Source: an uncultured Alphaproteobacteria bacterium (GTDB taxonomy: Bacteria > Pseudomonadota > Alphaproteobacteria > RF32 > CAG-239). From it: 64,000 nt of DNA. The notes below the pieces were generated by a model. The model saw only the letters and a list, made by a program, of their open reading frames with translations, did not search any database and was not told the origin of the DNA. Below are positions 9,262 to 58,473 of the stretch, piece after piece (position 1 is the first letter of the stretch; each line of letters starts with the position of its first letter). The translations under genes and the position numbers were made by a program. The stretch is taken from NCBI GenBank assembly GCA_944391345.1, contig CALXTE010000007.1, forward strand, positions 2,765-66,764, read 5' to 3'.

Positions 9262-10578
9262 ATGAAAGTAGGAAAAGTAAGTAATAGAAGAATATTAAAA
9301 CAAACGGCAGTCTTGCTACTATGTGTTGGTGCCGGTTGGTACCTCAAAGGTAAGATGACCCCGTCAATGAGCGGCATGGCCGGCATGAACCGTGAAGCTT
9401 TTGTTTTAATACAAGGCTTGGAAGAAGCCGACATCAGCGCCAAACAAAGCTATATCGGACATGTTGAGGCCATTAAAAGCGTGAACGTCATTCCGCAAGT
9501 CAGCGGCTATGTTGAAAAAGTTTTGTTCCAAGAAGGTAGCTTCGTTGAAGAAGGCGACATTCTGTTCATAATTGAACAAAAGAAATATCAAGCAACCGTA
9601 GAACTCCGAAAAGCAGAGCTTGAAAGCGCAAAAGCAAACTTAGTCCGAGCAGAAAGAGATTACAAACGTCAATCACAACTTTCTAAACAAAACTACGCCT
9701 CAAAAGCAACCTTTGATACCGCAGAAAGCAATTACTTACAAGCAAAAGCTGCCGTTGCACAGGCTGAAGCAAACTTAGATCTGGCCGAAATTGACTTAGG
9801 CTACACCGTCATTAAGGCCCCGATTAGTGGCTATATCGGAAAAGCACTGGTTACAGAAGGAAACTACGTCAGCTCCTCAGCTCAAAACTTGGCTCGTATT
9901 GTTCAAACCAATCCGATTCGAGTTGCTTTCTCAGTATCAGATAAAGAATATCTGACCAGTAAAATTCTCAGACAACAAAACGGCGAAGGCAGCATCCGCA
10001 GTGAAATTATCTTGCCTAATGGCCAAACGATTGAAAATCATTTCAAGTCGCGCTTTACGGATAATGAAATTAATACAGATACGGCAACGATTGCAGTTTA
10101 TGCCGAATACAAAAACGACGAAGGATTACTAATCCCCGGAAACTATGTTGACGTCAAAATCGGTCCCAAAGAAACTCAAAGAAGCTTGCTGGTTCCGCAA
10201 TCAGCTGTGGCCCAAGACGAACACGGCAACTATGTTATGATCGTTAAAGATGGCATAGCCGAAGAACGCCGCGTCACTTTGGGAGAAACCATCGGCACCA
10301 AACAAGTGGTCAGAAGCGGCTTGAACAAAGATGATAAAGTCATTATTCAAGGTCTGCAAAAAGCCAGCAACGGTGCTAAAGTTAATGCACAACTGATTGT
10401 TGAAGAGAAACTTCCGACAATCAATGCCGATGATGACGAACCGACCAAAGTTGAAGAAAGTCATCCGGTAGCAACCGCTATTCAAGCCCAAGAAGTTGAT
10501 GTTGACTCTCCGGTCATCAACAACACGGTTGGCTTTGAACAAGAAACAGAAGAAGAACAAACGCAAGCAGAGGAATAA
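9262..10578 (+). CDS. RND efflux periplasmic adaptor (membrane fusion protein)
   Basis: HlyD/AcrA-like: N-terminal anchor, coiled-coil hairpin, lipoyl and beta-barrel regions. Acidic C-terminal tail. Confidence 0.9.
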   Translation: MKVGKVSNRRILKQTAVLLLCVGAGWYLKGKMTPSMSGMAGMNREAFVLIQGLEEADISAKQSYIGHVEAIKSVNVIPQVSGYVEKVLFQEGSFVEEGDILFIIEQKKYQATVELRKAELESAKANLVRAERDYKRQSQLSKQNYASKATFDTAESNYLQAKAAVAQAEANLDLAEIDLGYTVIKAPISGYIGKALVTEGNYVSSSAQNLARIVQTNPIRVAFSVSDKEYLTSKILRQQNGEGSIRSEIILPNGQTIENHFKSRFTDNEINTDTATIAVYAEYKNDEGLLIPGNYVDVKIGPKETQRSLLVPQSAVAQDEHGNYVMIVKDGIAEERRVTLGETIGTKQVVRSGLNKDDKVIIQGLQKASNGAKVNAQLIVEEKLPTINADDDEPTKVEESHPVATAIQAQEVDVDSPVINNTVGFEQETEEEQTQAEE

Positions 10579-10584
10579 GCATAA

Positions 10585-13500
10585 ATGTTTTCAAGAATAT
10601 TCATCGAGCGCCCTCGCTTGGCAATGGTCATTTCCATTGTCTTGACTCTGGCGGGTGTTATCTCAGTTTTTTCACTTCCAATATCTTTGTATCCGGAAAT
10701 CACCCCACCGATGGTAACCGTATCGGCCAACTACCCCGGAGCCAGCGCAGATGTGCTTGCAAAAACGGTTGGTATTCCTATTGAACAAGAAATTAACGGT
10801 GTTGAAGACATGTTGTATATGGATTCATCATCACAAAATGATGGGTCTTATTCCTTGTCTGTTTCCTTTGAAGTTGGAACAGATCCGGACATGGCACAAG
10901 TTAAGGTGCAAAACCGTGTTCAACAAGCCACACCGAAACTCCCGAGTGAGGTTCAAAGACAAGGTATCAGCGTAACCCGCCGTTCGTCTGATATTTTGGG
11001 CTTTTTGAGCGCCCGCTCACCTAAAGGAACTCATGATACCAAGTTCATCAGTAACTATGTTGAAAATAACATCAAAAACAACTTAGCCCGTATTAACGGT
11101 GTCGGTGAAGTTAGCGTACACGCCTCTCCTCTGAGTATGCGTGTTTGGTTAAATGCCAACAAGCTCAGTGCCTTAAACTTGCCGGTTGCAAATGTTATTG
11201 CCGCTATCGAAGGACAAAACTATCAACCATCTTTGGGTAGCATCGGCGCCATGCCTGGTGACGGCGACCAACAAATGGTCTATACCTTGCAAACGCAAGG
11301 GCGTATTAATGAAGCCGAAGAATTCGGAAACATCATTGTCCGCACGGCCGAAGACGGCGGTTTGGTCAAACTTAAAGACGTTGCAAAAGTAGAAATCGGC
11401 ACAGAAAGTTACAGCGTTGAGTCAACCCTGGATGGGGGTCCGGCAGTTTCAATTTCCTTAAACCTGTCATCAGGTGCCAACGCTTTGGAAACCATGGAGG
11501 CCGTAAAACAAGAACTAAAAAGAATGGAACAGCTTTATCCGGAAGACTTCCAAGTCGATATCACCTATGATGCAACTTTATATATTGTTTCATCAATTGA
11601 GGAAGTTGTCTTCACCCTGGTATTGACCTTTGCATTGGTTATCGGCGTCTGCTACATATTTTTACAAGACTGGCGCGCAACCTTGGTTCCGTCATTAACC
11701 ATTCCGGTATCGTTGTTCGCAACTTTTGCCGTCATGATGGCCTTAGGCTACAGCATTAACTTACTGACTCTGTTCGGTTTGGTTTTAGCGATTGGTCTGG
11801 TCGTTGATGATGCGATTGTGGTTGTTGAACGTGTTCTTTACTTAATGGAAACCGAAAACTTAACCCCGAAAGAAGCCACGATTAAAGCCATGGAACAAGT
11901 ATCCAGCGCGGTTGTTGCGACGACATTGGTGTTGCTGGCTATTTTCGTTCCGGTCGGTTTTATGGGCGGCATTACCGGTAAGATTTATCAACAATTTGCG
12001 GTCACGATTTCAACTTCTGTTGCTTTCTCGGCCTTAAATGCGTTGACTTTGTCTCCGGCTTTGTGCGCAACCCTGCTTCGCCCGATTCAAGAGGTAAAAT
12101 CAGGCCCGTTGCATTGGTTCAATCTGATCTTGAACAAAGCACGCAACCGCTACATCGGAATTATTGCCATTATTGCCCGAAAAGTCAGCGTTATTGCCTT
12201 GATTTTAGGCTTGCTGATTTTAGGAAACTTTGCTTTCTTAAAAACCAGCAACACATCTTTCATTCCTGATGAAGACCAAGGTGTTATTTTAATAAACTTA
12301 CAGCTTCCTGAAGGTGCATCTTTTGAAAGAACAAGAGAGCTGATAAAGAAGCTCTATCCGACCATAAAAGCCGAACCCGGCGTCAGCAATGTTATGTCAA
12401 TTATCGGCTTCAGCTTGATTGGCGGTAGCGGTGAAAACGTTGCGTTCTCCGTTGTAACACTTGATCCCTGGAATGAAAGAAAAAGTGACGAACTTTATTC
12501 CACCAATATTTTGAACCGTATTAAGGCAAAAATTGCGAACACACCGGAAGCCGAAATCAATATGTTTGAATTTCCGGCAATTCCAGGTTTAGGTACAAGC
12601 GGTGGTATGGACTATCGTCTGCAGTCTTTAGATAGCTCTGATGCTAATGAATTATACAGCACGATGCAAGGCTTCTTAGGCCGCTTAAATTCATCACCGG
12701 CGATTAACTATGCTTATTCGACCTACACATCGCAAACACCGCATATTAATATCGAAATTGAAAAAGAAAAAGCTGAAAGTATGGGCATTTCCATCGGAGA
12801 TATTTATACCATTCTGCAAAACTATCTCGGTTCGACCTATGTCAACGACGTAAACTTCGGTACACAGGTTAATAAGGTTATAATCCAGTCTGATTGGCCT
12901 TATCGTAAAGACGTAGATTCGATAAAGAACTTATACGTTCAGAACAAAAACGGTGACATGGTTCCTTTGGGCACCGTCATAAAACTGGATAAAGTTTTGG
13001 CACCGCGAACCATTGAACGTTATAACCAATATCCGGCAGCAACGATTACGGCAGTTCAAAGTCAAGACATGAGCTCCGGACAGGCCATGGCTGAGGTTGA
13101 GGAATTGTCAAAACTCTTGCCAAAAGGCTATAGCTATCAGTGGTCCGGTATGAGCTACCAAGAAAAAGGAACGGAAGGTCAAATCGGCTCTTTGATTATC
13201 TTGGCCATAACCTTCGGCTATTTGTTCTTGGTTGCACAGTATGAAAGCTGGGCGATGCCTTTACCGGTTTTAACCTCAATCACTGTGGCCATGCTCGGCG
13301 CCTTTGCCGGCCTGTTCATCACCGGCTTGCCTTTGAGTATTTACGCCCAATTAGGTTTAATCTTGTTGGTCGGCTTGGCAAGTAAGAACGCTATTTTGAT
13401 TGTTGAGTTCTCTAAAGAAGAACGCGAAAGAGGCTCCTCAATCGTCAAAGCGGCCACGACCGGTACCAAAGAACGTTTCCGTGCGGTTTTGATGACAGCC

Positions 13501-45927: not shown

Positions 45928-46129
45928 AAAATAAAATTCAAAAAATTTTATTACAGCCGCCAGAACACGCAGATGATGCAAACCAGCTCTCGACCTGCTC
46001 TTTTGAAGGCACACCACCGACAATTGATTTCATAAGTAACTTTTACTACACTATTAATAAGTTATTATCATTATGTGTTTTTATAGAAACTATTTAACAA
46101 AAAAACCTCCTTAATGGAGGCTTTTTTAA

Positions 46130-46150
46130 TGGTGCCGACAGAGAGACTTG
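46130..46150 (-). repeat. 21-nt remnant of the tRNA-Thr 3' end (oldest att-like scar)
   Basis: TGGTGCCGACAGAGAGACTTG is identical to 49673..49693. It is preceded on the + strand by its own terminator hairpin CCTCC-ttaat-GGAGG. Confidence 0.75.
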
Positions 46151-46388
46151 TTCTGGCTCGTAAGGCTCTCAAAGTTCGCCAACTCGCTGCGGTCACTTGT
46201 TTTTTAATCTTTGTTTTGGCAATTTACATTGCCTGCACAAAGATAACAAAACTACGCCTCTTGCGCTAAAAAACACCGGAGCAACGGTGTTTTTTATCCT
46301 CGAGCCCGACCCAAGTGGGTCAAAAGTTCAAACATCTCAACAACTTTAAAAACAAAAAAGCGCCATAAAGGCGCATTTTTGTTTTTAA

Positions 46389-46435
46389 TGGTGCCGACAG
46401 AGAGACTTGAACTCCCGACCCACTGATTACAAATC
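46389..46435 (-). repeat. 47-nt duplicate of the tRNA-Thr 3' part (anticodon loop to CCA), att-type direct repeat
   Basis: Identical to 49673..49719. Preceded by the terminator hairpin GCGCC-ataaa-GGCGC. Confidence 0.85.
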
Positions 46436-46504
46436 GACTGCGTTTATAAAATATTATCTTTATAAATCAATATGTTAATCTTAAAATTTTAGCGATTTTT
46501 TAGC

Positions 46505-46544
46505 TGAGCTACCACCGAGCTACCACGCTAAAACAAGCTACCAC
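46505..46544 (+). repeat. three direct repeats of (G)AGCTACCAC next to the att remnant
   Basis: GAGCTACCAC at 46505 and 46517, AGCTACCAC at 46536. Confidence 0.7.
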
Positions 46545-46659
46545 CAGCTTATTACAAAATATTTTTTAATATAAATTTATGAATATTAAAAATTTTAATG
46601 ACTTTTAAATATTGTATCATTAAGATATTTTCAAGTTATTTATACAAACAGGATATTAA

Positions 46660-48129
46660 ATGTTAGAGAAAATTAGAAGCCTCCTTCAACAGGGTGAAGG
46701 TCTTAAAATTGAGTTCAAAGAAGCTCAAGGTGGAATGCCTAAGAGCGTATATGAAACTATTTGCGCCTTTTCTAACACTCAAGGTGGAGAAATTCTTTTG
46801 GGGGTTAAAGATAATGGAGATGTTGTAGGTATTGCTCCTCATCAAATATCTCAACTTAAGAAGGATTTTGCAAACACAATTAACAATCCAGCTAAAAATC
46901 ATCCACCGCTTTATTTATCTATTGAGCCGATAGTTTTTGAAGAAAAACATATTCTTTATATTAATGTTCCAGAAAGTGCAGAAGTTCATCGCTGTTGTAA
47001 TAAGATTTTTGTGCGTAATGAAGATGGTGATTATGATATTACCTCCCAACAAGCTCAAGTAGCGGCTTTATATTTAAGGAAACAAACTTCTTATTCTGAA
47101 AACCAGATATTCAAATATGCAAGGCTTGATGATTTGCGCCAAGATTTAATTGCGAAGGCTCGTAAAATGGCTGTTATTAGAGACGCAAACCATCCATGGA
47201 AAGAACTTGATGATTTTGAACTCTTAAAAAGTGCCTCTTTATACAAGAGAGATGTTCAGACAGGAGAAGAAGGAATAACGCTTGCCGGTTTATTACTTTT
47301 AGGAAAAGATGAAGTTATAGCATCTGTTTTACCTCATTTTAAGACAGATTTAATTATGCGCGTAAAAGATATTGGTCGTTATGATGATAGAGATGATGTT
47401 AGAACAAATTTAATTGACAGTTATGACCGTATAATGGCCTTTGTATCTAAACATTTACCATCACCTTTCTATTTAGAAGGAACGACACGACTGGATATTC
47501 GGAACATTATTTTCAGAGAAATTGCAGTCAATTTACTTGTTCACCGAGAATATACCAATCACTATCCGGCAAAGTTAGTTATAGAAAAAGACAGAATTTT
47601 TACTGAAAATGGTAATAAGCCATATATTCATGGTAATATCAATCCAGAAATGAATACACCTTATCCAAAGAATCCAACGATTGCACGATTTTTCAAGGAA
47701 ATAGGATTGGCGGATGAACTTGGTTCTGGTGTTCGTAAAATAACGCAATATGCTGAAGCTTATGCTGGAAGTCAGCCAATATTAACCGACTCTGATATAT
47801 TTAGATTAGAGTGGAAAACAAATCTGTTTCAAGATATGAAAAGCCAAGAACAGGATAGCTCTATAACGGTTACTGATAAAGCTAGTGAACAAGTTAGTGA
47901 ACAAGCTAGTAGACAAGTTAGTGGACAAGTTAGTGAACAAGCTCTTCAAATTATAACTTTTTGTGAAACACCTAAATCTTTATCTGAAATTATGACTTTT
48001 TCTCAGTATAAAAGCAGAGGTTATTTTGTAGATAGGGTATTGCAGCCTTTAATAAACCAAGGGCTTATTGAACGGACATTTCCTAATATTCCAAACCATC
48101 CAAACCAAAAATATAAAACAAAAAAATAA
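46660..48129 (+). CDS. AlbA_2 (Schlafen-like) DNA-binding domain protein with ATPase-like and wHTH C-terminal regions (COG2865-type putative regulator)
   Basis: The N-terminus (GEGLKIEFKEAQGGMPKSVYETICAFSNTQGGEILLGVKDNGDVVGI) is typical of AlbA_2. Contains GSGVRKI and a short SEQVSEQAS repeat. Confidence 0.7.
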   Translation: MLEKIRSLLQQGEGLKIEFKEAQGGMPKSVYETICAFSNTQGGEILLGVKDNGDVVGIAPHQISQLKKDFANTINNPAKNHPPLYLSIEPIVFEEKHILYINVPESAEVHRCCNKIFVRNEDGDYDITSQQAQVAALYLRKQTSYSENQIFKYARLDDLRQDLIAKARKMAVIRDANHPWKELDDFELLKSASLYKRDVQTGEEGITLAGLLLLGKDEVIASVLPHFKTDLIMRVKDIGRYDDRDDVRTNLIDSYDRIMAFVSKHLPSPFYLEGTTRLDIRNIIFREIAVNLLVHREYTNHYPAKLVIEKDRIFTENGNKPYIHGNINPEMNTPYPKNPTIARFFKEIGLADELGSGVRKITQYAEAYAGSQPILTDSDIFRLEWKTNLFQDMKSQEQDSSITVTDKASEQVSEQASRQVSGQVSEQALQIITFCETPKSLSEIMTFSQYKSRGYFVDRVLQPLINQGLIERTFPNIPNHPNQKYKTKK

Positions 48130-48527
48130 ATTTGGAATTTTAATTAAAATACCCCATGAGGTTTGCCATTTGTAAATTTGGGGAATCCCAAGTGGAAAAG
48201 ATTTCTCCCGATAAGCTATTGCCGTGGATAACGCGAACACTCAAGCCTAATAAGCTAAGTTGCGTATAAGTCATGCAGACACATAACTCATCAATATCAG
48301 TGGCCTCAATATATAATTTGCCCCAGATTGTTGAGGCATATTTGCTCCTGTAACACCAATAGGAATGGAGTTTTGTGTGTAAATCAAGTGTTTTTTTTGT
48401 AAATGAAATTTTAATAAGATAGGAGATAAATTTAAAATTATAGATGGAAAACAATAAACAAGTTCACGCAAATTTTAAGTTACGCTTTCCAAAGTGCTAA
48501 TTTAAATTTCTTCCTTTGGAGGTGCTT

Positions 48528-49460
48528 ATGAATAAAAATTTCAAATATACGCTTCTTTCATTTGTCAGTTTGTTGATATTTTCTACAGAAATATCCGCCA
48601 AAACAGCTCCTAGTTTTGATTGTAACAAGGACTCGACAGAGGTTGAAAAAATATTACCTCCACACTGTACGGATACATCCGTGGAATCTCCTAAATCACT
48701 CCCTGTTTTTAGTTGTACTAAAGAGAAATGTACTAAAATTCCCAATAAATTAAGCTTGTTAACTGTTTTATCAAATAGTAATGAGAAAAATAAAAGTCAA
48801 AAAATTGTAAAGATGTTAGAACTTGGTGGAGATGTTAATGAAGAAGATGCTACAGGTTGGACACCTTTATATTTTGTGCTTTTTTATGCATTAGATGATG
48901 AATATACTTCAACTACAAAAACATTATTATCTCACGGTGCAAATATAAATTATATAAACCAAGTAACAGATAACACTTTAGTTGCAGCCATAAGTTCTAA
49001 TTGCAATGAAGTATCCTTAAAGCAGTTAGAGGTATTGCATATACATGGGTTTAATTTAAATACGAGAATATTCAGTCCAAAAGAATATTATGGAGAAAAT
49101 CCAACCTTACTCATGTCCTTAATTAGTTCAGCTCTACACAATAAAAAATGTATAGAAAAAGTAAAATATTTACTTAATCAAGATGTGGATGTTAACGCTA
49201 TTAATTATGTTCATGAATATGAAGACCATAAAACAGTAGAAGACGCTAATGCTCTATTTTATGTCTTAGATTTTAATAACAAAACTCAAAAGATTGATCC
49301 TAAAGTTGTCTTAGAGATAACACAATTACTCGTCCATAAGGGAATTAATAAAAATTTTGTTAATAGCCATGGTCATGATGCGCTATATTTCCTTAACAAG
49401 AATGAAGTATTAAAGAGAAGTCCTCAATACATGACATTAAAAGAACTATTAATAGAATAG
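48528..49460 (+). CDS. secreted ankyrin-repeat protein
   Basis: Start at MNKNFKY (ATG 48528, GGAGG upstream). Signal peptide. Ankyrin-type repeats (GWTPLYFVL, LLSHGANINY, LLNQDVDVNAIN, LVHKGINKNFVNSHGHDALYF). Confidence 0.7.
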   Translation: MNKNFKYTLLSFVSLLIFSTEISAKTAPSFDCNKDSTEVEKILPPHCTDTSVESPKSLPVFSCTKEKCTKIPNKLSLLTVLSNSNEKNKSQKIVKMLELGGDVNEEDATGWTPLYFVLFYALDDEYTSTTKTLLSHGANINYINQVTDNTLVAAISSNCNEVSLKQLEVLHIHGFNLNTRIFSPKEYYGENPTLLMSLISSALHNKKCIEKVKYLLNQDVDVNAINYVHEYEDHKTVEDANALFYVLDFNNKTQKIDPKVVLEITQLLVHKGINKNFVNSHGHDALYFLNKNEVLKRSPQYMTLKELLIE

Positions 49461-49672
49461 AGAATATTATAAAAATTTTTAAACAAATTGCAGATTAAAA
49501 TCCAAAAAAGTTCATAATATGGCAAATTTTTCTTTTCAAGATGTAAAAACATACTCCAAAAAATGTTATCTTTTTAGGGGGCTCCTAGTCGAACCGCTTC
49601 CTCCGCGGTTCGAGAACTCTATATGCGTTATCATCATAAAAAAAGCCTCCACAAGGGAGGCCTTTTTTACGA

Positions 49673-49748
49673 TGGTGCCGACAGAGAGACTTGAACTCCC
49701 GACCCACTGATTACAAATCAGTAGCTCTACCAACTGAGCTATGTCGGC
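49673..49748 (-). tRNA. tRNA-Thr (anticodon UGU), CCA encoded
   Basis: The minus strand folds as a cloverleaf: GCCGACA-TA-GCTC-AGTTGGTA-GAGC-T-ACTGA-TTTGTAA-TCAGT-GGGTC-GGGAG-TTCAAGT-CTCTC-TGTCGGC-A-CCA (76 nt). Terminator hairpin immediately 3'. Confidence 0.9.
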
Positions 49749-49813
49749 AACAACAGAAAAACTTATAACCTAGAGAAAATCTGTTGTCAACAAAAAAATA
49801 TCAATCAAGCAAG

Positions 49814-51256
49814 CTACTTGCTTTTGCCATTTTTAAGAGAATAAAGCTTACGCATATCTGCCAAAGATATCTTTTTAACATGTTCTAACTTTTTAGCAAC
49901 ATCGGCCTTTTCTTCACCCTCCGGCAATCTATTTAACAGTTTGCCATAAACAATCTCTTGAATTCTTGCCTTAGCAACTGCCGAAATGTTTGCTTTTTTA
50001 GCCTCAGTCAAAGCCTTATGATAATAACTCAAATCATGCGTTTTATCCGTAATGGAAGACAACGCCATACAACGCTCTGCACCCTTAAGAAATTTAAGGG
50101 CTATAACGGTTTTGGTATTTTTCCAATCATCCTTTCGGCCCAAATTGCGCTGCATTTCAGAGATTCGTTTCAAAACATGAATACGAGAATCTTTTGGGGA
50201 ATAGCGATAAGCATCCATAAGATGATGAAGCGCTTTTTCACCTGAAATTTTTTTATCACTGTTTTGCGTCAAAAAGCCGATTCTTGTTGCACGAGATGTA
50301 TAAATATCGGCCAAAGCCAAATTAATTTGGCATTTCTCACTTTTGTCTTTAGCCGAAGACAAAGCATGTTTATAAGCACGCAACACAATTTTATCATTTG
50401 GATCAGACAAACGCCCCTGACAATAAGAAATAAGCTTATAATCTGAAGAATAGGTCAAAGCCTTACGCAAACAATTAAGCTCCATATCTTTTGCGGGACC
50501 GAAATCGGCTTTTTCCAAACGCATCCGATAATACATCTTAGAGGCAATATAATTTATTTTAGCCTTATTTTCTGCCGAAAGGTCTGGCTCAAATTGATTT
50601 AATTGCTCCAAAATTTTTGCTGTGTTATAATTATTAACATCTTTTTCCGGATTTGTAGCATAATCTCTGGCTTCGGCAATTGTTTTTCCTAAGCCAAGCA
50701 ACGGCTGCAAAGCCTCAACATTGGCAAGACGTTCATGAATATGCGGAATAACCGAAGTATTTCCGTTTTGTTTGGCCAAAGCCGCCATATAAACAAAGTC
50801 ATCATCTTTAAAATGACAAACTTTTAAAAGACTTTTATAAGCATCATCAACTTTTTCTTCCAAAAACTCGGATGCAACATTATCGCAATAAAAACCGATA
50901 AGAAGCCCATAAGCAGCCTCTGTTAATTCTTGCGGATTATCTTTCAGCTTAGGATCATCTTCAAGACAAGCGTCTAAAACCTCAGTATAATAGTCATGAT
51001 TATTTTCAATAAAATCATTCAAAAACAGATATTTGAATTCGTCATTTGAAAGGGGTTCCGGCGCTTTTAGCACAACAGTTTGCTGCGCCTCGTTCTCGGC
51101 ACTCTGATTAGCCTGCCCTTCTTGCACCCCATTTTCAGTACTCTGAGTAGTCTGTTTCTGCTGATTTTCTTCTATGGCAGAAAGAATCTCTTTTCCTTCA
51201 TTATTTTGTGTATTTTTATCTATTTGATTATTATTTTTTGTCATGTCTGCCTCCAC
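49814..51256 (-). CDS. hypothetical protein (Q/N/E-rich N-terminus, helical-repeat-like remainder)
   Basis: 480-aa ORF with coding-like composition. No confident domain. Confidence 0.5.
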   Translation of the reverse strand: MEADMTKNNNQIDKNTQNNEGKEILSAIEENQQKQTTQSTENGVQEGQANQSAENEAQQTVVLKAPEPLSNDEFKYLFLNDFIENNHDYYTEVLDACLEDDPKLKDNPQELTEAAYGLLIGFYCDNVASEFLEEKVDDAYKSLLKVCHFKDDDFVYMAALAKQNGNTSVIPHIHERLANVEALQPLLGLGKTIAEARDYATNPEKDVNNYNTAKILEQLNQFEPDLSAENKAKINYIASKMYYRMRLEKADFGPAKDMELNCLRKALTYSSDYKLISYCQGRLSDPNDKIVLRAYKHALSSAKDKSEKCQINLALADIYTSRATRIGFLTQNSDKKISGEKALHHLMDAYRYSPKDSRIHVLKRISEMQRNLGRKDDWKNTKTVIALKFLKGAERCMALSSITDKTHDLSYYHKALTEAKKANISAVAKARIQEIVYGKLLNRLPEGEEKADVAKKLEHVKKISLADMRKLYSLKNGKSK

Positions 51257-54922: not shown

Positions 54923-54961
54923 AAATCCCTCTTTGAGAATTTTCAAAGAGGGATTTTTTTT
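54923..54961 (+). terminator. intrinsic terminator
   Basis: AAATCCCTCTTTGA-gaatt-TTCAAAGAGGGATTT followed by a T run. Confidence 0.75.
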
Positions 54962-55036: not shown

Positions 55037-55459
55037 ATTTGATTAAAATATTAAAATATGCTAATATAATCTCTGCGACTACTGGACTATGACTTTAATT
55101 TTGTAATTTTTTCATAGAGGTGCAGTCAATGGATATGTATAATAAATTTCAGTCGCCGCTTGGTTATCAGACCGGTGAAGGTCAGATTGACAGCTATGGC
55201 GTCGATCACAGCGGCTTTTCTACCCGTGATGAGTTGGAATATCAATTTACAAGACAAGGTAAAAATTAGTTTCAGCCCCGAAAACACCCATCTAAGCAAC
55301 GCGACTTCTTGTCCCAATCAGAAAACAGCCAAGTGATGCCCGCGGGGGCTCCCCGCTCCTCAATATGGTACTAATTTCTGGGGCAATTCTGACAATAACT
55401 ATGGCTTTGGTTCTTCAAATATTCACGACAATATTGAGAATAGCGAGAACCAAACTGAA
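55037..55459 (+). repeat. leader module copy A (promoter + 46-codon ORF + gap + N/G/S-rich linker)
   Basis: 423 bp, 415/423 (98%) identical to 57503..57925. Contains TATAAT at 55065-55070 and AGAGG-N8-ATG at 55129. Confidence 0.95.
55129..55269 (+). CDS. 46-codon leader ORF (MDMYNKFQSPLGYQTGEGQIDSYGVDHSGFSTRDELEYQFTRQGKN), possibly the N-terminus of the toxin
   Basis: Good RBS (AGAGG) and ATG. Ends at TAG 55267-55269. Identical copy at 57595..57735. Too short for the ORF track. Confidence 0.45.
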   Translation: MDMYNKFQSPLGYQTGEGQIDSYGVDHSGFSTRDELEYQFTRQGKN

Positions 55460-55993
55460 CAGAGTTATGAGTTGGAAAACAGTAACACACCCCAATGGGG
55501 ACTGAACAACACAGCTTTAGTGCAAAATAATAATGCGTATCTTGATTTTAATGGGAAGGAATTACTTTGGCATCAAAATAATAAGGTAACTAATTCTTGG
55601 AAAGCGATGTCGGGGCAGCCTGATTATCAATGTAAAGAATATGACCGCGTAAAAAATAAAGGTCCATTACCAGAAGGAAAATGGTTGGTAAGACAATCTC
55701 AACATCAGAATTATGACCAAACTCAAACGATATGGGACAAATTAAAAAATAATCTTGGAAGAGGTGAATGGAGAGGTGGAAAAGCTTCTTGGGGAAACAA
55801 CCGCATTTGGTTGGAACCAGCGACTGGAACAGATAATAAAGGCCGCACAGGCCTCTCTATTCATGGTGGTAAAGAGTATGGTTCTGGTGGATGTATTGAT
55901 TTAACAGATAAGATGGATGATTTCACCGATAAATTTAAGAGATATGGACAAGATATGATTCTTAATGTAAAATATGATAAAGATTGTTGGTGA
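55337..55993 (+). CDS. Tlde1/DUF2778-like (L,D-transpeptidase-fold) toxin module A; frame open from 55337, no canonical start before TTG 55472
   Basis: AMSGQPDY...NKGPLPEGKW...RIWLEP...GLSIHGG..YGSGGCIDL matches the DUF2778/Tlde1 pattern (SG...GPIPxGxY...IHGG...S.GCI). The upstream N/G/S-rich linker is shared with the other modules. Confidence 0.6.
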   Translation, partial: CPRGLPAPQYGTNFWGNSDNNYGFGSSNIHDNIENSENQTEQSYELENSNTPQWGLNNTALVQNNNAYLDFNGKELLWHQNNKVTNSWKAMSGQPDYQCKEYDRVKNKGPLPEGKWLVRQSQHQNYDQTQTIWDKLKNNLGRGEWRGGKASWGNNRIWLEPATGTDNKGRTGLSIHGGKEYGSGGCIDLTDKMDDFTDKFKRYGQDMILNVKYDKDCW

Positions 55994-56056
55994 TTTTTAT
56001 TGTATTTTGGATAAATGCTCAATATACTAAAAGCAAATTTAACCGAAGGTGTAATT

Positions 56057-56377
56057 ATGAAAAGAATTAAGCTGATACCTTTTTATCTCCTATTAGCTTT
56101 AAACGGATTTATAATTTTTATATATACTATAACATATCCAAAAGAAATGAGCAGCGACCAAATGCCTTGGAACTCTGAGGCTTTAGGTTGGGCATATGAA
56201 AACAAAATTAATTATACCATTTTTACAATAATAGATATGCTGATAATAATTGCTCCTTCGGTTTATGCTTGGAAGAGCCATAAAACAAATCTGGTAAAAT
56301 CCTATATAGTACTATCCATTCCTGCTTTTGTTTATCTTATACGCTATATATATTTTACTAACTTTTTTAACATATAA
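56057..56377 (+). CDS. small three-TM membrane protein, putative cognate immunity A
   Basis: Start at MKRIKLIPFY (ATG 56057, GAAGG upstream). Immediately follows toxin A. Homologous to 57140..57496 (YP...SEA(L/M)..A motif, same TM topology). Confidence 0.55.
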   Translation: MKRIKLIPFYLLLALNGFIIFIYTITYPKEMSSDQMPWNSEALGWAYENKINYTIFTIIDMLIIIAPSVYAWKSHKTNLVKSYIVLSIPAFVYLIRYIYFTNFFNI

Positions 56378-56392
56378 ATATATCATAAAGTA

Positions 56393-56465
56393 CAAACTTT
56401 TGAGGTAATTCTGACAATAACTATGGCTTTGGTTCTTCAAATATTCACGACAATATTGAGAATAG
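56393..56465 (+). repeat. partial linker homology block B (recombination handle of the orphan cassette)
   Basis: 56404..56465 matches 55382..55443 at 61/62 positions and 57848..57909 at 62/62. The W codon TGG of copies A and C is TGA here (56401-56403). Confidence 0.9.
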
Positions 56466-57048
56466 AAATAATAATCCGTTTGAAAATACGGTGAATAGCT
56501 TTGGGCAGAACCAAACCGAACAGAGTTATGAGTTGGTGAATGAGAGGCAGAATCAAAACGCCTCCTCATATAATAATCCTAATTGTTATATGAGATTTGA
56601 CGGAAAAAATTTGAATTTATTTGCTAATAATCAAAAAGTAAATAGTCTTGATGCCATGTCAGGGCGACCAGATTACCAAGCAAAAAAATTTCAAAATGTT
56701 CCCAACAAAGGTCCTATTCCTGAAGGAACGTACTACGCTAACCAAAATCAACGCCAAAAAATAGGTGTTTTGGATGCAGCTATTGGTGCGGGAACAGGTC
56801 TTTTAGGCATAAATAGAGGGACATGGAAAGGTTCTTTACCTGCTTGGGGAATGCGGAGAATATGGTTAAAGCCAGATTCTGATACCAATACTTATGAGCG
56901 AGATGGTTTTACTATTCATGGTGGTTTTAGCAAAGGTTCTGCCGGTTGTATTGATATTCCATGGCAAACAGGAATATTGAGTGATTATATGGATAATTGT
57001 CAAGAATCTGTTCCTGTTTATGTCGGTTATCCTAAAGATAATTGGTAA
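56404..57048 (+). CDS. orphan (startless) Tlde1/DUF2778-like toxin cassette B
   Basis: The frame opens right after TGA 56401-56403, with no RBS or ATG. AMSGRPDY...NKGPIPEGTYY...RIWLKP...GFTIHGG..KGSAGCIDI. Roughly one third of residues identical to toxin A by eye. Confidence 0.55.
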   Translation, partial: GNSDNNYGFGSSNIHDNIENRNNNPFENTVNSFGQNQTEQSYELVNERQNQNASSYNNPNCYMRFDGKNLNLFANNQKVNSLDAMSGRPDYQAKKFQNVPNKGPIPEGTYYANQNQRQKIGVLDAAIGAGTGLLGINRGTWKGSLPAWGMRRIWLKPDSDTNTYERDGFTIHGGFSKGSAGCIDIPWQTGILSDYMDNCQESVPVYVGYPKDNW

Positions 57049-57139
57049 AATTATATTAAAGAAAGGCAAGACTTTATTCTTGCTTTTCTTTATTTTATAT
57101 TGTAGTATAACAGAAATTACTACTTTAAGGTAAGAAAAA

Positions 57140-57496
57140 TTGATTGATAGAATCAAGTGCAGTATGGTTGAAACGTGTAGGCTACTTTGGCAATTTAAGT
57201 GGTATATCGCCATATATCCGTTAATTTTTTTATGTTTAATCCATGAATACTTTTATCCTCCAGCTAAAGATGATCCGATTTTCGGTTCCGAGGCTATGTC
57301 TTATGCTTGGAATTACGTAAATCAGGAGGTTTATATCGGAAGTCTAAAAAATGATTTAATCTTTTGGCTATGCTATTTTCTTTTAGGAACTAGCAATATG
57401 CGGAATCATCCGTTGTTGGCTAAATTTATTTTTTTATTGCCTTTGTTATGGGGAATTTTGAGGCTAACAAGTGAATTTATAAAATCTTTATTCTGA
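57140..57496 (+). CDS. small three-TM membrane protein, putative cognate immunity B
   Basis: Follows toxin B and is homologous to immunity A. Start uncertain: TTG 57140 or ATG 57164. Confidence 0.5.
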   Translation: MIDRIKCSMVETCRLLWQFKWYIAIYPLIFLCLIHEYFYPPAKDDPIFGSEAMSYAWNYVNQEVYIGSLKNDLIFWLCYFLLGTSNMRNHPLLAKFIFLLPLLWGILRLTSEFIKSLF

Positions 57497-57502
57497 ATAC
57501 GA

Positions 57503-57925
57503 ATTTGATTAAAACATTAAAATATGCTAATATAATCTCTGCGACTACTGGACTATGACTTTAATTTTGTAATTTTTTCATAGAGGTGCAGTCAATGGAT
57601 ATGTATAATAAATTTCAGTCGCCGCTTGGTTATCAGACCGGTGAAGGTCAGATTGACAGCTATGGCGTCGATCACAGCGGCTTTTCTACCCGTGATGAGT
57701 TGGAATATCAATTTACAAGACAAGGTAAAAATTAGTTTCAGCCCCGAAAACACCCATCTAAGCAACGCGACTTCTTGTCCCAATCAGAAAACAGCCAAGT
57801 GATGCCCTCGGGGGCTCCCCGCTCCTCAACAAGGCACTAACTTTTGGGGTAATTCTGACAATAACTATGGCTTTGGTTCTTCAAATATTCACGACAATAT
57901 TGAGAATAGCGAGAACCAAACTGAA
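57503..57925 (+). repeat. leader module copy C
   Basis: 98% identical to 55037..55459, including the promoter, the 46-codon ORF (57595..57735), TAG, gap, TGA and hairpin. Confidence 0.95.
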
Positions 57926-57964
57926 TATGTGGATATTGCACTCCTTTTGGTATTGCCAAAGTAG
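57803..57964 (+). pseudogene. linker fused to a 13-codon stub instead of a toxin domain (truncated third module)
   Basis: The toxin frame continues ...NSENQTE, then diverges to YVDIALLLVLPK and stops at 57962-57964. Confidence 0.5.
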
Positions 57965-58050
57965 CACAACAAACATATAATGATACTTGTAAGCACAAAA
58001 ATTAATAACCAGATTTTTTTGCAAAAGCTATTATAAAGGAGATAATATTT

Positions 58051-58473
58051 ATGAAAACGTTCGCTTGGCATGTTTTAATTTTAGGTGGATTTTTCTTTAT
58101 TATCTCCTTGCTCTCTTTTTTTCCGGAAAATTCCATTTTAACTACCATAAACATAGCGGCATTTATTATTTTTGCCTTAATGTTTTTCATTTTATGCTTT
58201 AAGAAAAAATATAATTTCATCAGCAGATTTCAAAACAAATTTACTAAAACAAGTATTTATTTGGCCGCTCTCGGTATTGGTGAATATTTTAGTATTATAT
58301 TCATCACTATTCCCGGAACAATTTATGGATACAAAGTCGCTATGGCACAGTATAACGGAGAGGAAATACCTTTAGCACCAATAAGCTATTTAAATAACAT
58401 CTATTACATATATCTTATTATTTCATGCATTTCCCTTATCTGGGCAACCTATACAAGCTTTATAAAAAAATAG
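58051..58473 (+). CDS. small four-TM membrane protein (possible orphan immunity)
   Basis: AAGGAG RBS. 140 aa, four hydrophobic segments. Sits where an immunity gene would be expected after the third leader. Confidence 0.5.
   Translation: MKTFAWHVLILGGFFFIISLLSFFPENSILTTINIAAFIIFALMFFILCFKKKYNFISRFQNKFTKTSIYLAALGIGEYFSIIFITIPGTIYGYKVAMAQYNGEEIPLAPISYLNNIYYIYLIISCISLIWATYTSFIKK

Follow-up and report, generated by a model that had tools for sequence, protein, structure and literature searches.

A putative toxin–immunity cassette array from a lineage-restricted family of polymorphic antibacterial effectors in uncultured Alphaproteobacteria

Related effector and toxin systems

The Salmonella Tlde1a/Tldi1a type VI secretion system (T6SS) pair (PF10908; PDB 7UMA, 7UO8) is a point of comparison for the locus analyzed here; both the mechanism and the catalytic motif of Tlde1a have been described (PMC9638812). 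Toxin tips A and B of our array have the same fold, with identical spacing of the catalytic His, Ser, and Cys (H-x6-S-x-G-C), and we infer a periplasmic peptidoglycan target for them as well. However, their identity to Tlde1a is only 22–25%, and at H129, the second His of the motif in Tlde1a, the present family has Gly or Ala, so activity may differ. Tlde1a is also a stand-alone protein, whereas intact members of our family carry the tip fused to an N-terminal domain of approximately 94 aa (the N-domain) and a long linker. Unlike in the Tlde1a/Tldi1a pair, the partner is a multi-pass membrane protein of no recognized family, and T6SS genes are absent near the locus.

Other systems resemble the array in organization. 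In MIX, FIX, and RIX T6SS effectors, one conserved N-terminal domain is found on many unrelated tips, an immunity gene lies downstream of each effector, and the loci are scattered, with several per genome. The N-domain has no sequence match to those markers, however, and the present family occurs only in uncultured Alphaproteobacteria of gut and rumen. As in the orphan arrays of Rhs and CdiA, a full-length gene in our family is followed by truncated orphan cassettes in which a short homologous "handle" is retained; strains differ in content, the breakpoints falling at the handle, and immunity genes persist where toxin cassettes decay. The differences are that our proteins are small (200–740 aa), without Rhs/YD or haemagglutinin repeats and without a VENN or PxxxxDPxGL boundary, and that the handle belongs to the N-domain and linker (KENQLIQ... 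or FWG...NNYGFG). Colicin M and pesticin are of comparable size, with an unstructured N-terminal region, tips acting on the peptidoglycan pathway, and membrane or periplasmic immunity proteins, and one tip type of our family is pesticin-like. Here, in contrast, no TonB box or receptor-binding domain was recognized, and the genes are chromosomal, arrayed, and without a lysis gene. Finally, prokaryotic SAA-like (Lipocone) domains are predicted lipid-head-group toxins of the periplasm or membrane (Burroughs and Aravind 2025, PMC12419801). The largest tip cluster of our family is SAA-like, and its partners are membrane proteins, which fits that predicted site of action. The Lipocone tips described there are linked to T4SS, T6SS, T7SS, T9SS, and MuF heads; the N-domain is not among the heads just named.

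Layout of the array and its toxin tips

The window, a stretch of 64,000 nucleotides from an uncultured Alphaproteobacteria bacterium, contains an AT-rich locus (33–38% GC, compared with 43–48% in the flanks). We consider this locus, with a probability of about 0.75, to be an array of putative toxin–immunity cassettes whose polymorphic antibacterial effectors form a lineage-restricted family. The gene order given in the initial annotation agrees with the open reading frames found on the forward strand, and its AT-rich composition was confirmed, as were the duplicated leader modules, which lie in a 300-nt direct repeat:

55037–55336, forward: 300-nt repeat, copy 1, 100% identical to 57503–57802
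55129–55269, forward: leader ORF A, ATG at 55129, stop at 55267–55269
55263–55357, forward: 95-nt non-coding segment, copy 1, delimited by alignment with related locus L001
55337–55993, forward: toxin cassette A, open frame, with the Tlde1-type domain at about 55601–55990 (Pfam)
56015–56377, forward: candidate immunity gene A, a small membrane protein with three hydrophobic segments (hydropathy)
56387–56465, forward: linker repeat, copy 2, the handle of orphan cassette B
56404–57048, forward: orphan toxin cassette B, a linker remnant and a Tlde1-type domain
57057–57092, forward: terminator-like hairpin inside the array, between toxin B and its partner gene
57140–57496, forward: candidate immunity gene B, a small membrane protein with two to three hydrophobic segments
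57503–57802, forward: 300-nt repeat, copy 2, with leader ORF C
57595 (ATG) to 57733–57735 (stop), forward: leader ORF C
57729–57823, forward: 95-nt segment, copy 2
57803–58005, forward: remnant of toxin cassette C, from alignment with related locus L082 and the P0056 protein sequence
58051–58473, forward: candidate immunity gene C, a 140-aa membrane protein with four hydrophobic segments

In copy 1 of the 300-nt repeat, the leader ORF is accompanied by a promoter-like site (TTAAAA-16-TATAAT, 55043–55070) and a ribosome-binding site, and the copy also takes in the first 74 of the 95 nt of the non-coding segment. The array has three copies of a 79-nt linker repeat (starts at 55365, 56387, and 57831; identity 91–100%). 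The locus had also been described as bounded by terminators. This was borne out upstream, where a terminator-like hairpin (54923–54956) lies 3' of a DegT-family aminotransferase gene, but a search at the 3' end of the array found none. Recombination at the near-identical linker repeats and the 300-nt repeat, acting as homology handles, could exchange the tip-plus-immunity cassettes that follow an expressed N-domain, in the manner of Rhs/CdiA orphan arrays. Differences in array content between strains fall precisely at the linker repeat: in L001, immunity gene A is followed by an SAA-like cassette, and L082 has cassette C only.

The assignment of both toxins to the Tlde1/DUF2778 family was upheld by sequence and by structure. 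Toxin B matched the Pfam Tlde1_dom model with an E-value of 1.9e-10 (41.6 bits); toxin A, which is 100% identical to the tip-bearing intact 271-aa protein P0001, matched Tlde1_dom at 7.5e-7 and YkuD at 9.4e-6, its score of 30.0 bits standing against a PF10908 cut-off of 30.1. The two domains are 39% identical (BLASTP E 5e-38). AlphaFold2 models had a pLDDT above 90 for the tip of A and for residues 61–214 of B, and Foldseek placed both with Tlde1a (7uo8; E 2.7e-8 for A and 2.2e-8 for B), the best PDB matches of both tips being 7uo8/7uma (E ~2e-8, TM-score 0.62 normalized to the target). Both the catalytic His and Cys are present, and the His, Ser, Gly, Cys, and Asp at the catalytic motif are invariant in alignments of 45 and 39 sequences. 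Tips A and B would be Tlde1-type L,D-carboxy/transpeptidases, predicted to act in a rival cell's periplasm by cutting or exchanging D-Ala4 of the peptidoglycan stem peptides.

The small membrane protein after each tip is the candidate cognate immunity factor, presumably acting at the periplasmic face of the inner membrane; this role is argued from gene position and co-variation. Candidate immunity gene A, with a likely true start at MKRIKL (56057), is also found 3' of intact toxin A in L001, and its ORF cluster comes after Tlde1 tips at other loci. Candidate immunity protein B shows a weak similarity to A, located in the loop that follows the first membrane segment (YP..D...SEA..YAW), and its ORF cluster occurs at four loci, following a Tlde1 tip at one other.

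The N-domain family and its delivery

In intact homologues, leader, linker, and tip are read straight through as one protein of approximately 200–740 aa, made of N-domain, linker, and variable tip. The N-domain consists of a part of approximately 65 aa with one long helix, followed by an invariant FWG...NNYGFG..I..N motif. What the initial annotation took for a 46-aa leader and a separate linker are instead two parts of this one domain; beyond it, the family linker is predicted to be disordered and is rich in N, Q, G, and S. The N-domain heads at least 267 protein clusters (50% identity), starting at residue 1 in nearly all of the best 150 of 267. The 232 genome loci at which it was found, with several in a genome, belong to uncultured Alphaproteobacteria of the human gut and the rumen. 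As had been suspected, leader and linker resemble no known trafficking domain (no match in Pfam, NCBIfam, PHROGs, or PDB sequences), and many other C-terminal domains are attached to them. The earlier idea of a candidate undescribed interbacterial toxin system stands as regards an uncatalogued N-domain, but the system is an addition to the known class of polymorphic toxins rather than a new kind.

The C-terminal tips fall into 31 clusters, with Pfam recognizing Tlde1, GH108 plus PG_binding_3, pesticin/lysozyme, VgrG3-C-like, SLT, and SAA-like domains, among others. All of the tips recognized by Pfam, at or near threshold, act on peptidoglycan or lipid carriers, and their site of action is the periplasm or envelope. 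Nuclease, deaminase, and ADP-ribosyltransferase tips were not found, with the exception of one sub-threshold PBECR2 match. Tip type and downstream ORF cluster co-vary, and each type has its own partner gene, which resembles toxin–immunity pairing. Some partners are lipoproteins encoded on the opposite strand.

Position and conservation suggest that the N-domain specifies delivery, as proposed initially. Since neither secretion systems nor adaptor genes were seen in the vicinity of any locus, in agreement with the earlier view of this one, this is a role that we infer. For example, 80 loci with 6-kb flanks had no conserved large neighbor, and no secretion genes were among the tested window ORFs. 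One tentative possibility is a contact-dependent, T6SS-like apparatus encoded elsewhere, with the N-domain as a cargo marker like MIX, FIX, or RIX and the effectors loaded onto VgrG, PAAR, or Hcp. The layout shared with those effectors is consistent with this, as are tips known from T6SS effectors (Tlde1, VgrG3-C-like with an E-value of 2.9e-34, SLT, and lysozyme types). However, no vgrG, hcp, PAAR, or adaptor gene appears in the Pfam-annotated contexts, the 80 flanked loci and window ORFs speak against it as well, and the N-domain has no Pfam match to a known marker.

Nearly as probable in our estimate, and likewise tentative, is release as diffusible bacteriocins of the colicin M/pesticin type, in which the N-domain and disordered linker would bind an outer-membrane receptor and Tol/Ton, and a periplasm-acting tip would need to cross the outer membrane only. 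The envelope-acting character of all Pfam-recognized tips, the pesticin-like tip, the small size of the proteins, the conserved aromatic/Gly motifs of the linker, and the lack of nearby secretion genes point in this direction, and an HTH-type gene lies immediately upstream in 18/80 loci, while the window contains MotA/TolQ/ExbB-family genes. Yet neither a TonB nor a TolB box was identified, the protein is too small to accommodate a separate domain for receptor binding, genes for lysis or release were not seen, the N-domain is on no plasmid, and orphan-cassette arrays are more typical of contact-dependent systems. Delivery by another route takes up the remainder of our estimate.

State of the array

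The initial annotation had the toxins attached to the 46-aa leader. This is not the case in the window, where none of the toxin cassettes is coupled to the N-domain: a 95-nt orphan-cassette head interrupts A and C, and B has a TGA and is without a start codon at its head. Leader ORF A encodes N-domain residues 1–43 (MDMYNKFQSPLGY...EYQFTRQ), then GKN, then TAG (an HMM of alignment A2 matches at positions 1–45, E 1.2e-21). The middle of the N-domain (KENQLIQNYNNQGITKNYP) is absent from the window, with 95 nt in its place; copy 1 of this segment substitutes for 52 nt encoding DKENKLIQNYNNQGITKNYP in the intact sister allele (L001). It contains the TAG stop, an out-of-frame ATG (55336–55338), a G5 run (55344–55348), and a small hairpin (GCGGGG-GCT-CCCCGC). 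Beyond it, in a different frame from the leader, cassette A continues with the second half of the N-domain and the linker (FWGNSDNNYGFGSSNIHDNIEN) before the Tlde1-type domain; its first canonical start codon is TTG 55472. Copy 2 has one mismatch to copy 1 and also carries the G5 run. In cassette B, with no N-domain upstream, the handle has TGA (56401–56403) in place of the TGG (Trp of FWG) of the other copies, and the first start codon is GTG 56491. These internal TTG and GTG codons are possible routes to toxin protein. Cassette C retains linker repeat copy 3 (57831–57909) and both ends of a small P0056-type tip around a 166-nt internal deletion that shifts the frame (L082 positions 1187–1425 align with 57722–57960, and 1592–1724 with 57962–58094). 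All three partner genes of the window are intact. We therefore regard the strain, with its toxin cassettes uncoupled and these genes preserved, as most probably still immune, though disarmed or silent.

It is improbable that the array is instead functional, with the ribosome or polymerase slipping by +1 on G5, or G5/G4 phase variation, yielding toxin A and perhaps C. The product would start at ATG 55336, reading MPAG followed by LPAPQYGTNFWG..., with the slip at G GGG G (55344–55348). L082 has a leaderless cassette headed by the 95-nt segment (97.9% identity) with G4, which puts the ATG in frame with linker and tip (P0056); G5 is found in three independent copies (two in the window and one in L006); and in L071, a hairpin beside the G run stays paired despite changes on both arms. 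However, five G is short for slippage, no Shine–Dalgarno sequence precedes ATG 55336, the RNA fold z-score is 0.05, the product would lack N-domain residues 1–60, and the deletion breaks cassette C regardless. Inactivated alleles are also common in the family, including a 1-nt insertion shared by L019 and L069 and a linker TAA on 14 contigs.

Very improbable is an assembly artefact, with collapsed or mis-joined repeats behind both the exact duplication of 300 nt and the splitting of gene A, which would in fact be intact. The perfect identity of the duplication inside a repeat-rich locus would suit this, as would the intact gene (P0001) on a sister contig 99.5–99.9% identical to the window, but the 95-nt segment occurs independently in L082 and partly in L071 and L006, its two window copies differ by one base just past the exact repeat, and the flanks are collinear with L001 and L082.

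That these are endolysin-plus-holin-like lysis or secretion cassettes, or serve the cell's own peptidoglycan remodeling, with the membrane proteins as holins, is highly improbable: the tips, as peptidoglycan hydrolases, do have relatives among endolysins (PHROG endolysin, E 1.2e-29), and small multi-pass membrane proteins lie 3' of them, but many tip types share one N-domain, orphan arrays occur, partners are tip-specific and include opposite-strand lipoproteins, content varies from strain to strain, and phage association is nearly absent (none in IMG/VR, one unverified record in INPHARED).

Cassette C has a further variant in L082, where the tip is kept and approximately 375 nt of the 140-aa partner gene are deleted. 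This loss fits a silent orphan, yet it weakens the pairing of tip C with that gene. The 140-aa membrane protein itself is present in L093.

The N-terminal domain and its distribution

With the toxin A frame as query, 127 proteins were returned. The best match, a 271-aa protein on the sister contig L001 (P0001), is 100% identical to toxin A and runs without interruption through MYNKFQSPLGYQTGEGQIDSYGVDHSGFSTRDELEYQFARQDKENKLIQNYNNQGITKNYPQYGTNFWGNSDNNYGFGSSNIHDNIEN... and then into the tip, the variable C-terminal toxin part. The initial annotation had treated a leader and a linker as separate modules. In the family alignment (A2), both are parts of one N-terminal domain of ~94 aa (hereafter the N-domain), and in the window this domain is broken. 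Its consensus is SPLGY..IDxYGVDHSGF..RDE..YQ..R..E ... YPQYGTNFWG..NNYGFG.S.I..NIEN, with 23 invariant positions in A2, including G12, Y13, D21, G24, V25, H27, F30, D34, E35, Y38, Q39, R42, E46, F69, W70, G71, N75, N76, G78, F79, and G80. AlphaFold2 modeled residues 11-60 of P0001 with moderate confidence (pLDDT 66-76) and placed a long helix at 30-53. Over the linker (71-117), pLDDT is below 50 except for a short stretch at 82-85. Remote-homology searches with the N-domain against Pfam, NCBIfam, PHROGs, and PDB sequences gave no significant match and no recognizable secretion or trafficking domain.

In 1.84 billion representative proteins scanned in full with HMMER, the N-domain occurred in 267 clusters (200 at E ≤ 1e-10), so that the family comprises at least 267 clusters defined at 50% identity. 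Family proteins are 200-740 aa long, and in nearly all of the best 150 of the 267 clusters the N-domain starts at or very near residue 1. When one genome per species was taken from GTDB, 232 loci were found, almost all in uncultured human gut or rumen Alphaproteobacteria. There are several loci per genome (at least six in MAG BRZ_CI__bin98), and the small number of records assigned to other taxa are short contigs. A profile search of a 5.8-billion-protein set returned mostly short or partial proteins, mainly labeled “hypothetical protein [Alphaproteobacteria bacterium]”. A literature search on polymorphic toxins in gut Alphaproteobacteria turned up no account of the N-domain.

A phage or plasmid origin of the N-domain was rejected, as there was no PLSDB match, no IMG/VR locus, and one unverified record only in INPHARED (L092, MT838567.1). 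That 5120-nt record, which is labeled “UNVERIFIED: Bacteriophage sp.” and comes from human faeces, has an N-domain gene at 435-683; it may be a bacterial fragment that was classified wrongly, or host DNA that was packaged into particles.

Tips and partner genes

The C-terminal parts found behind the N-domain fall into 31 clusters, 14 of which have at least two members. Those recognized by Pfam are Tlde1, GH108 with PG_binding_3, pesticin/phage lysozyme, T6SS_VgrG3-like_C (E 2.9e-34), SLT, and SAA-like tips; PBECR2 gave one tip match, below threshold. Among 73 further representatives, GH108 was present in 11 and other families in fewer, while about 60% had no Pfam match. For prokaryotic SAA-like domains, cleavage of lipid head groups has been predicted, with the periplasm or the membrane as its site (PMC12419801). 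The other tips recognized at or near threshold are peptidoglycan hydrolases or modifiers, so that, by family assignment only, every tip at this level acts on the envelope.

The cluster of the downstream ORF co-varies with the tip type. Thus, for example, ORF cluster 3 comes after cluster-4 tips in 5/5 cases and ORF cluster 7 after cluster-9 tips in 5/5 (both tip types are unnamed), and a minus-strand lipoprotein comes next in five of eight cases for pesticin-like tips. More generally, the gene after a Tlde1 or SAA-like tip encodes a small membrane protein on the same strand, and the one after a lysozyme-type tip a lipoprotein on the opposite strand. Such co-variation is the pattern of toxin–immunity pairs, and the partners are candidate immunity genes. 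Just upstream of the first toxin gene, L005 (5136-5885) and 17 other loci carry a conserved gene of 150-260 aa whose N-terminus is HTH-like and weakly matches a PHROG transcriptional regulator. The gene also has a conserved C-terminal block (KRAQSRDKK.APFREYFK...QLAQANNREF) and no Pfam match, and it may regulate the arrays locally.

In an HMM scan of 89 loci, the usual array had a single full-length gene and, after it, truncated copies beginning at HMM position ~45 (KENQLIQ), ~58-65, or ~71. Many of these orphan cassettes (P0032, P0033, P0065, P0074, and others) have an in-frame ATG exactly at the homology border (MDWVKENQLIQ, MIKENQLIQ, MVKENQLIQ), and cells may therefore make truncated proteins in which the first half of the N-domain is missing. 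Array content varies between strains exactly at the linker repeat; after immunity A, for example, L001 has an SAA-like cassette where the window has cassette B.

As judged from these comparisons, the family has three hallmarks of polymorphic toxins: one shared N-domain with many tips, a tip-specific downstream gene as candidate immunity gene, and orphan cassettes with a homologous handle. The initial annotation was thus right in outline to call the locus a polymorphic toxin array. Its proposal of a new kind of system is better replaced by that of a new, lineage-restricted variant of polymorphic toxins.

Tips A and B share 39% identity (E 5e-38), and their initial description as Tlde1/DUF2778-like was borne out. 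Toxin B scored 41.6 bits against PF10908 (Tlde1_dom; gathering cut-off 30.1); toxin A was borderline at 30.0 bits, 0.1 bit short of that cut-off, and passed for YkuD (26.7 bits; cut-off 23.4). AlphaFold2 gave a pLDDT above 90 over both tips, and the best PDB matches of both models were to Salmonella Tlde1a (7uo8/7uma; E 2.7e-8 and 2.2e-8; TM-score normalized to target 0.62), followed by YkuD, Csd6, and mycobacterial L,D-transpeptidases. An alignment of 45 sequences shows no variation at H229, S236, C239, and D241 (P0001 numbering) or at the motif Gly; in the B type, H172, S179, and C182 are invariant. Both tips thus have the His and the Cys that are catalytic in the motif H-x(n)-(S/T)HGC, at a spacing of 10 residues, which equals that of H121 and C131 in Tlde1a (PMC9638812). 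Given these Pfam scores, the modeled fold, and the invariant motif residues, tips A and B are predicted members of the Tlde1 fold family, but with a variant motif in which the second His (H129 of Tlde1a) is replaced by Gly in the A type (GSGGC) and by Ala in the B type (GSAGC). Tlde1a uses H129 to position D-Ala4; when this residue is lost, carboxypeptidase and cross-linking activity drop, whereas D-amino-acid exchange does not (PMC9638812).

Tips like that of toxin A also occur elsewhere. Proteins of 239-246 aa (P0005, P0008, P0012, and others) have a Tlde1 tip 76-81% identical to that of toxin A fused to a PG_binding_1-like N-terminus, with two small ORFs after each (L089-L091, ~10000-10720). 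P0038 has a tip 48% identical to that of toxin A inside a Phage_Mu_F protein. The tip is therefore common to different N-terminal modules.

Relation to known systems and route of delivery

Like polymorphic toxin systems in the sense of Zhang et al. 2012 (PMC3482391), the family places many tips, here 31 clusters, behind one N-domain; unlike them, it is missing a recognizable trafficking domain. Rhs and CdiA toxins have Rhs/YD or hemagglutinin repeats and a VENN or DPxGL boundary, whereas this family gave no such Pfam hits, and its proteins are only 200-740 aa with the N-domain at residue 1. The fold, the His/Cys pair, and its spacing are common to the Tlde1-type tips and Tlde1a, but H129 and a T6SS gene neighborhood are not found here. 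With colicin M and pesticin the family shares, by family assignment only, a periplasm-acting tip.

The initial statement that no T6SS or other secretion genes lie nearby held for the window ORFs tested and for the related contexts. No secretion-system gene was found within 6-10 kb of related loci in Pfam-annotated contexts, and the neighborhoods of further loci consist of housekeeping genes and prophage remnants, with no secretion apparatus. When the neighbors of 80 loci were clustered, there was no conserved accessory gene besides the toxins, their partners, and the HTH-type gene upstream in 18 loci. A literature search on secretion systems or flagella in gut Alphaproteobacteria of RF32, the presumed order of these genomes, returned nothing.

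Two routes could be considered, and they fit about equally well. The N-domain could, as MIX, FIX, or RIX do, load effectors onto a T6SS whose genes lie elsewhere, and the Tlde1-type tips would suit such cargo; however, no such marker was matched in a Pfam scan of 21 N-domains and full-length members, and no T6SS family was found among the neighbors in the window ORFs tested or in the related contexts. Alternatively, uptake like that of colicin M or pesticin, across the outer membrane only, would explain why the tips seen are exclusively envelope-acting. Against this, there is no separate receptor-binding domain, as the N-domain passes directly into linker and tip, and neither a conserved small lysis gene (80 loci) nor plasmid carriage (PLSDB) was found. 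No TonB or Tol box motif could be assigned in the N-terminal region, which is mostly of low pLDDT at 71-117 of P0001.

A further possibility, to which we give a probability of about 0.3, is that the N-domain defines a delivery route undescribed for Gram-negative effectors, either as a compact import module or as a signal for another apparatus. As an import module, it would need no secretion system and would bring tips that target peptidoglycan through the outer membrane of competing gut Alphaproteobacteria; as a signal, it would point to an apparatus as yet unconnected with interbacterial killing.

To our knowledge, no means of interbacterial antagonism has been described for uncultured human gut and rumen Alphaproteobacteria. 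The family gives them a large effector repertoire under one uncatalogued N-domain, with more than 14 recurring tip types, of which about 60% lack a Pfam match. The N-domain offers a handle for finding the delivery machinery, for discovering further cell-wall and lipid-carrier toxins along with the immunity proteins that go with them, and for tracking strain-level competition in metagenomes.

The array in the window

All three toxin cassettes of the window (A, B, and C) are uncoupled from the N-domain, and all three partner genes are intact. Three-frame translation recovered every module that had been listed initially, but not as one gene.

Features of the locus and its borders
54923-54956: terminator-like hairpin at the end of the upstream DegT-family aminotransferase gene
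55037-55336 and 57503-57802, +: 300-nt direct repeat, 100% identity
55129 (ATG) to 55267-55269 (TAG), +: leader ORF A, with a GAGGTG ribosome-binding site and a promoter-like site upstream
Open from 55337, +: linker and toxin A, in a frame that differs from the leader's; first canonical start TTG 55472, 3' of the linker
From 55365, 56387, and 57831, +: three copies of a 79-nt linker repeat, 91-100% identity, aligned
Right after TGA 56401-56403, +: cassette B opens, with TGA in place of the Trp codon of FWG and no leader
Cassette C, +: leader and linker arranged as in A, then breaks off
After the cassettes, +: three small intact ORFs with 3, 2-3, and 4 hydrophobic segments
Downstream of the locus, opposite strand: genes for a DUF502 protein and RecJ

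The locus has a GC content of 33-38% against 43-48% in its flanks. The window derives from an uncultured gut alphaproteobacterium, and the nearest relatives of the locus lie in human gut and rumen MAGs labeled Alphaproteobacteria or “uncultured Azospirillum”. The three linker repeats are homologous handles common to the orphan cassettes and the main gene. Reading of TGA as Trp or Gly was ruled out, since translation with table 11 leaves long housekeeping ORFs unbroken. A structured RNA or riboswitch in the repeats was likewise rejected, as Rfam at the gathering threshold gave only the tRNA at 49676-49748.

The window and L001 are 99.5-99.9% identical, and their collinearity breaks at a single spot, where 52 nt coding DKENKLIQNYNNQGITKNYP correspond to 95 nt in the window (55263-55357, and again 57729-57823). 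In L082, a related locus of another strain, the same 95 nt (97.9% identical) stand directly 3' of the DegT terminator and head a leaderless 122-aa protein (P0056) that begins MPAGLPAPQYGTNFWG and has a tip of the cassette C type. Because BLAST finds the 95-nt segment only at cassette heads (L082, L071, and L006), we read it as the putative 5' end of an orphan cassette that became attached to a leader after codon ~46. No exact copy of its 3' 23-mer was found among 81 loci. Two other candidates were discarded: as a structured RNA, the segment has a fold on a par with that of shuffled sequence (z 0.05) and no Rfam match; as a mobile element (MITE), it has no further copy in the window.

A run of G in the segment has four G in L082 and five in the window (55344-55348 and 57810-57814), and the G4 form puts the ATG of P0056 in frame. 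Restoration of a leaderless product by a +1 slip on the G5 run, or by G4/G5 phase variation, seems improbable. The simplest reading is that the strain has lost or silenced its weapons and retains immunity. Inactivated members are common elsewhere in the family, including the frameshifted L019 and L069 and a pesticin-type gene with a TAA in the linker on 14 contigs. The window also shows how an array changes over time, with cassettes swapped at the 79-nt handle and toxin genes that decay where immunity genes stay.

Cassette C lacks 166 nt relative to L082, and L082 lacks ~375 nt of a 140-aa membrane gene. These losses are reciprocal (L082 1592-1724, window 57962-58473): L082 retains tip C in P0056, and the window retains the membrane gene. 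L019 (2857-3625) and L069 (1947-2691), from two MAGs, have an identical 1-nt insertion (ACTTTCGCGTGATGA) that shifts the frame of the N-domain after HSGFT, either an inherited pseudogene or a recurrent slip. In L094-L096 (10001-11038; P0230 and the next 247-aa ORF), a pesticin/lysozyme-type member is split by TAA within the conserved S.I..NIEN motif, giving an 85-aa product that is identical on the 14 contigs. Opposite-strand lipoprotein genes flank it, with prophage-like genes (DUF6362, Terminase_2) 2-3 kb downstream.

Toxin B and its membrane partner gene are separated by a terminator-like hairpin at 57057-57092 (15 pairs and a T run), which is oddly placed if the two genes are co-transcribed. 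The other window ORFs among those tested are housekeeping or regulatory genes. At 46000-50000 on the minus strand, a low-GC stretch (32-34%) that adjoins the tRNA gene has ORFs at 46660-48129 and 48516-49460 for a Schlafen AlbA_2/Fic-like_C protein and an ankyrin-repeat protein, the latter with an N-terminus that, judged by eye, resembles a signal peptide. This stretch may be a genomic island.
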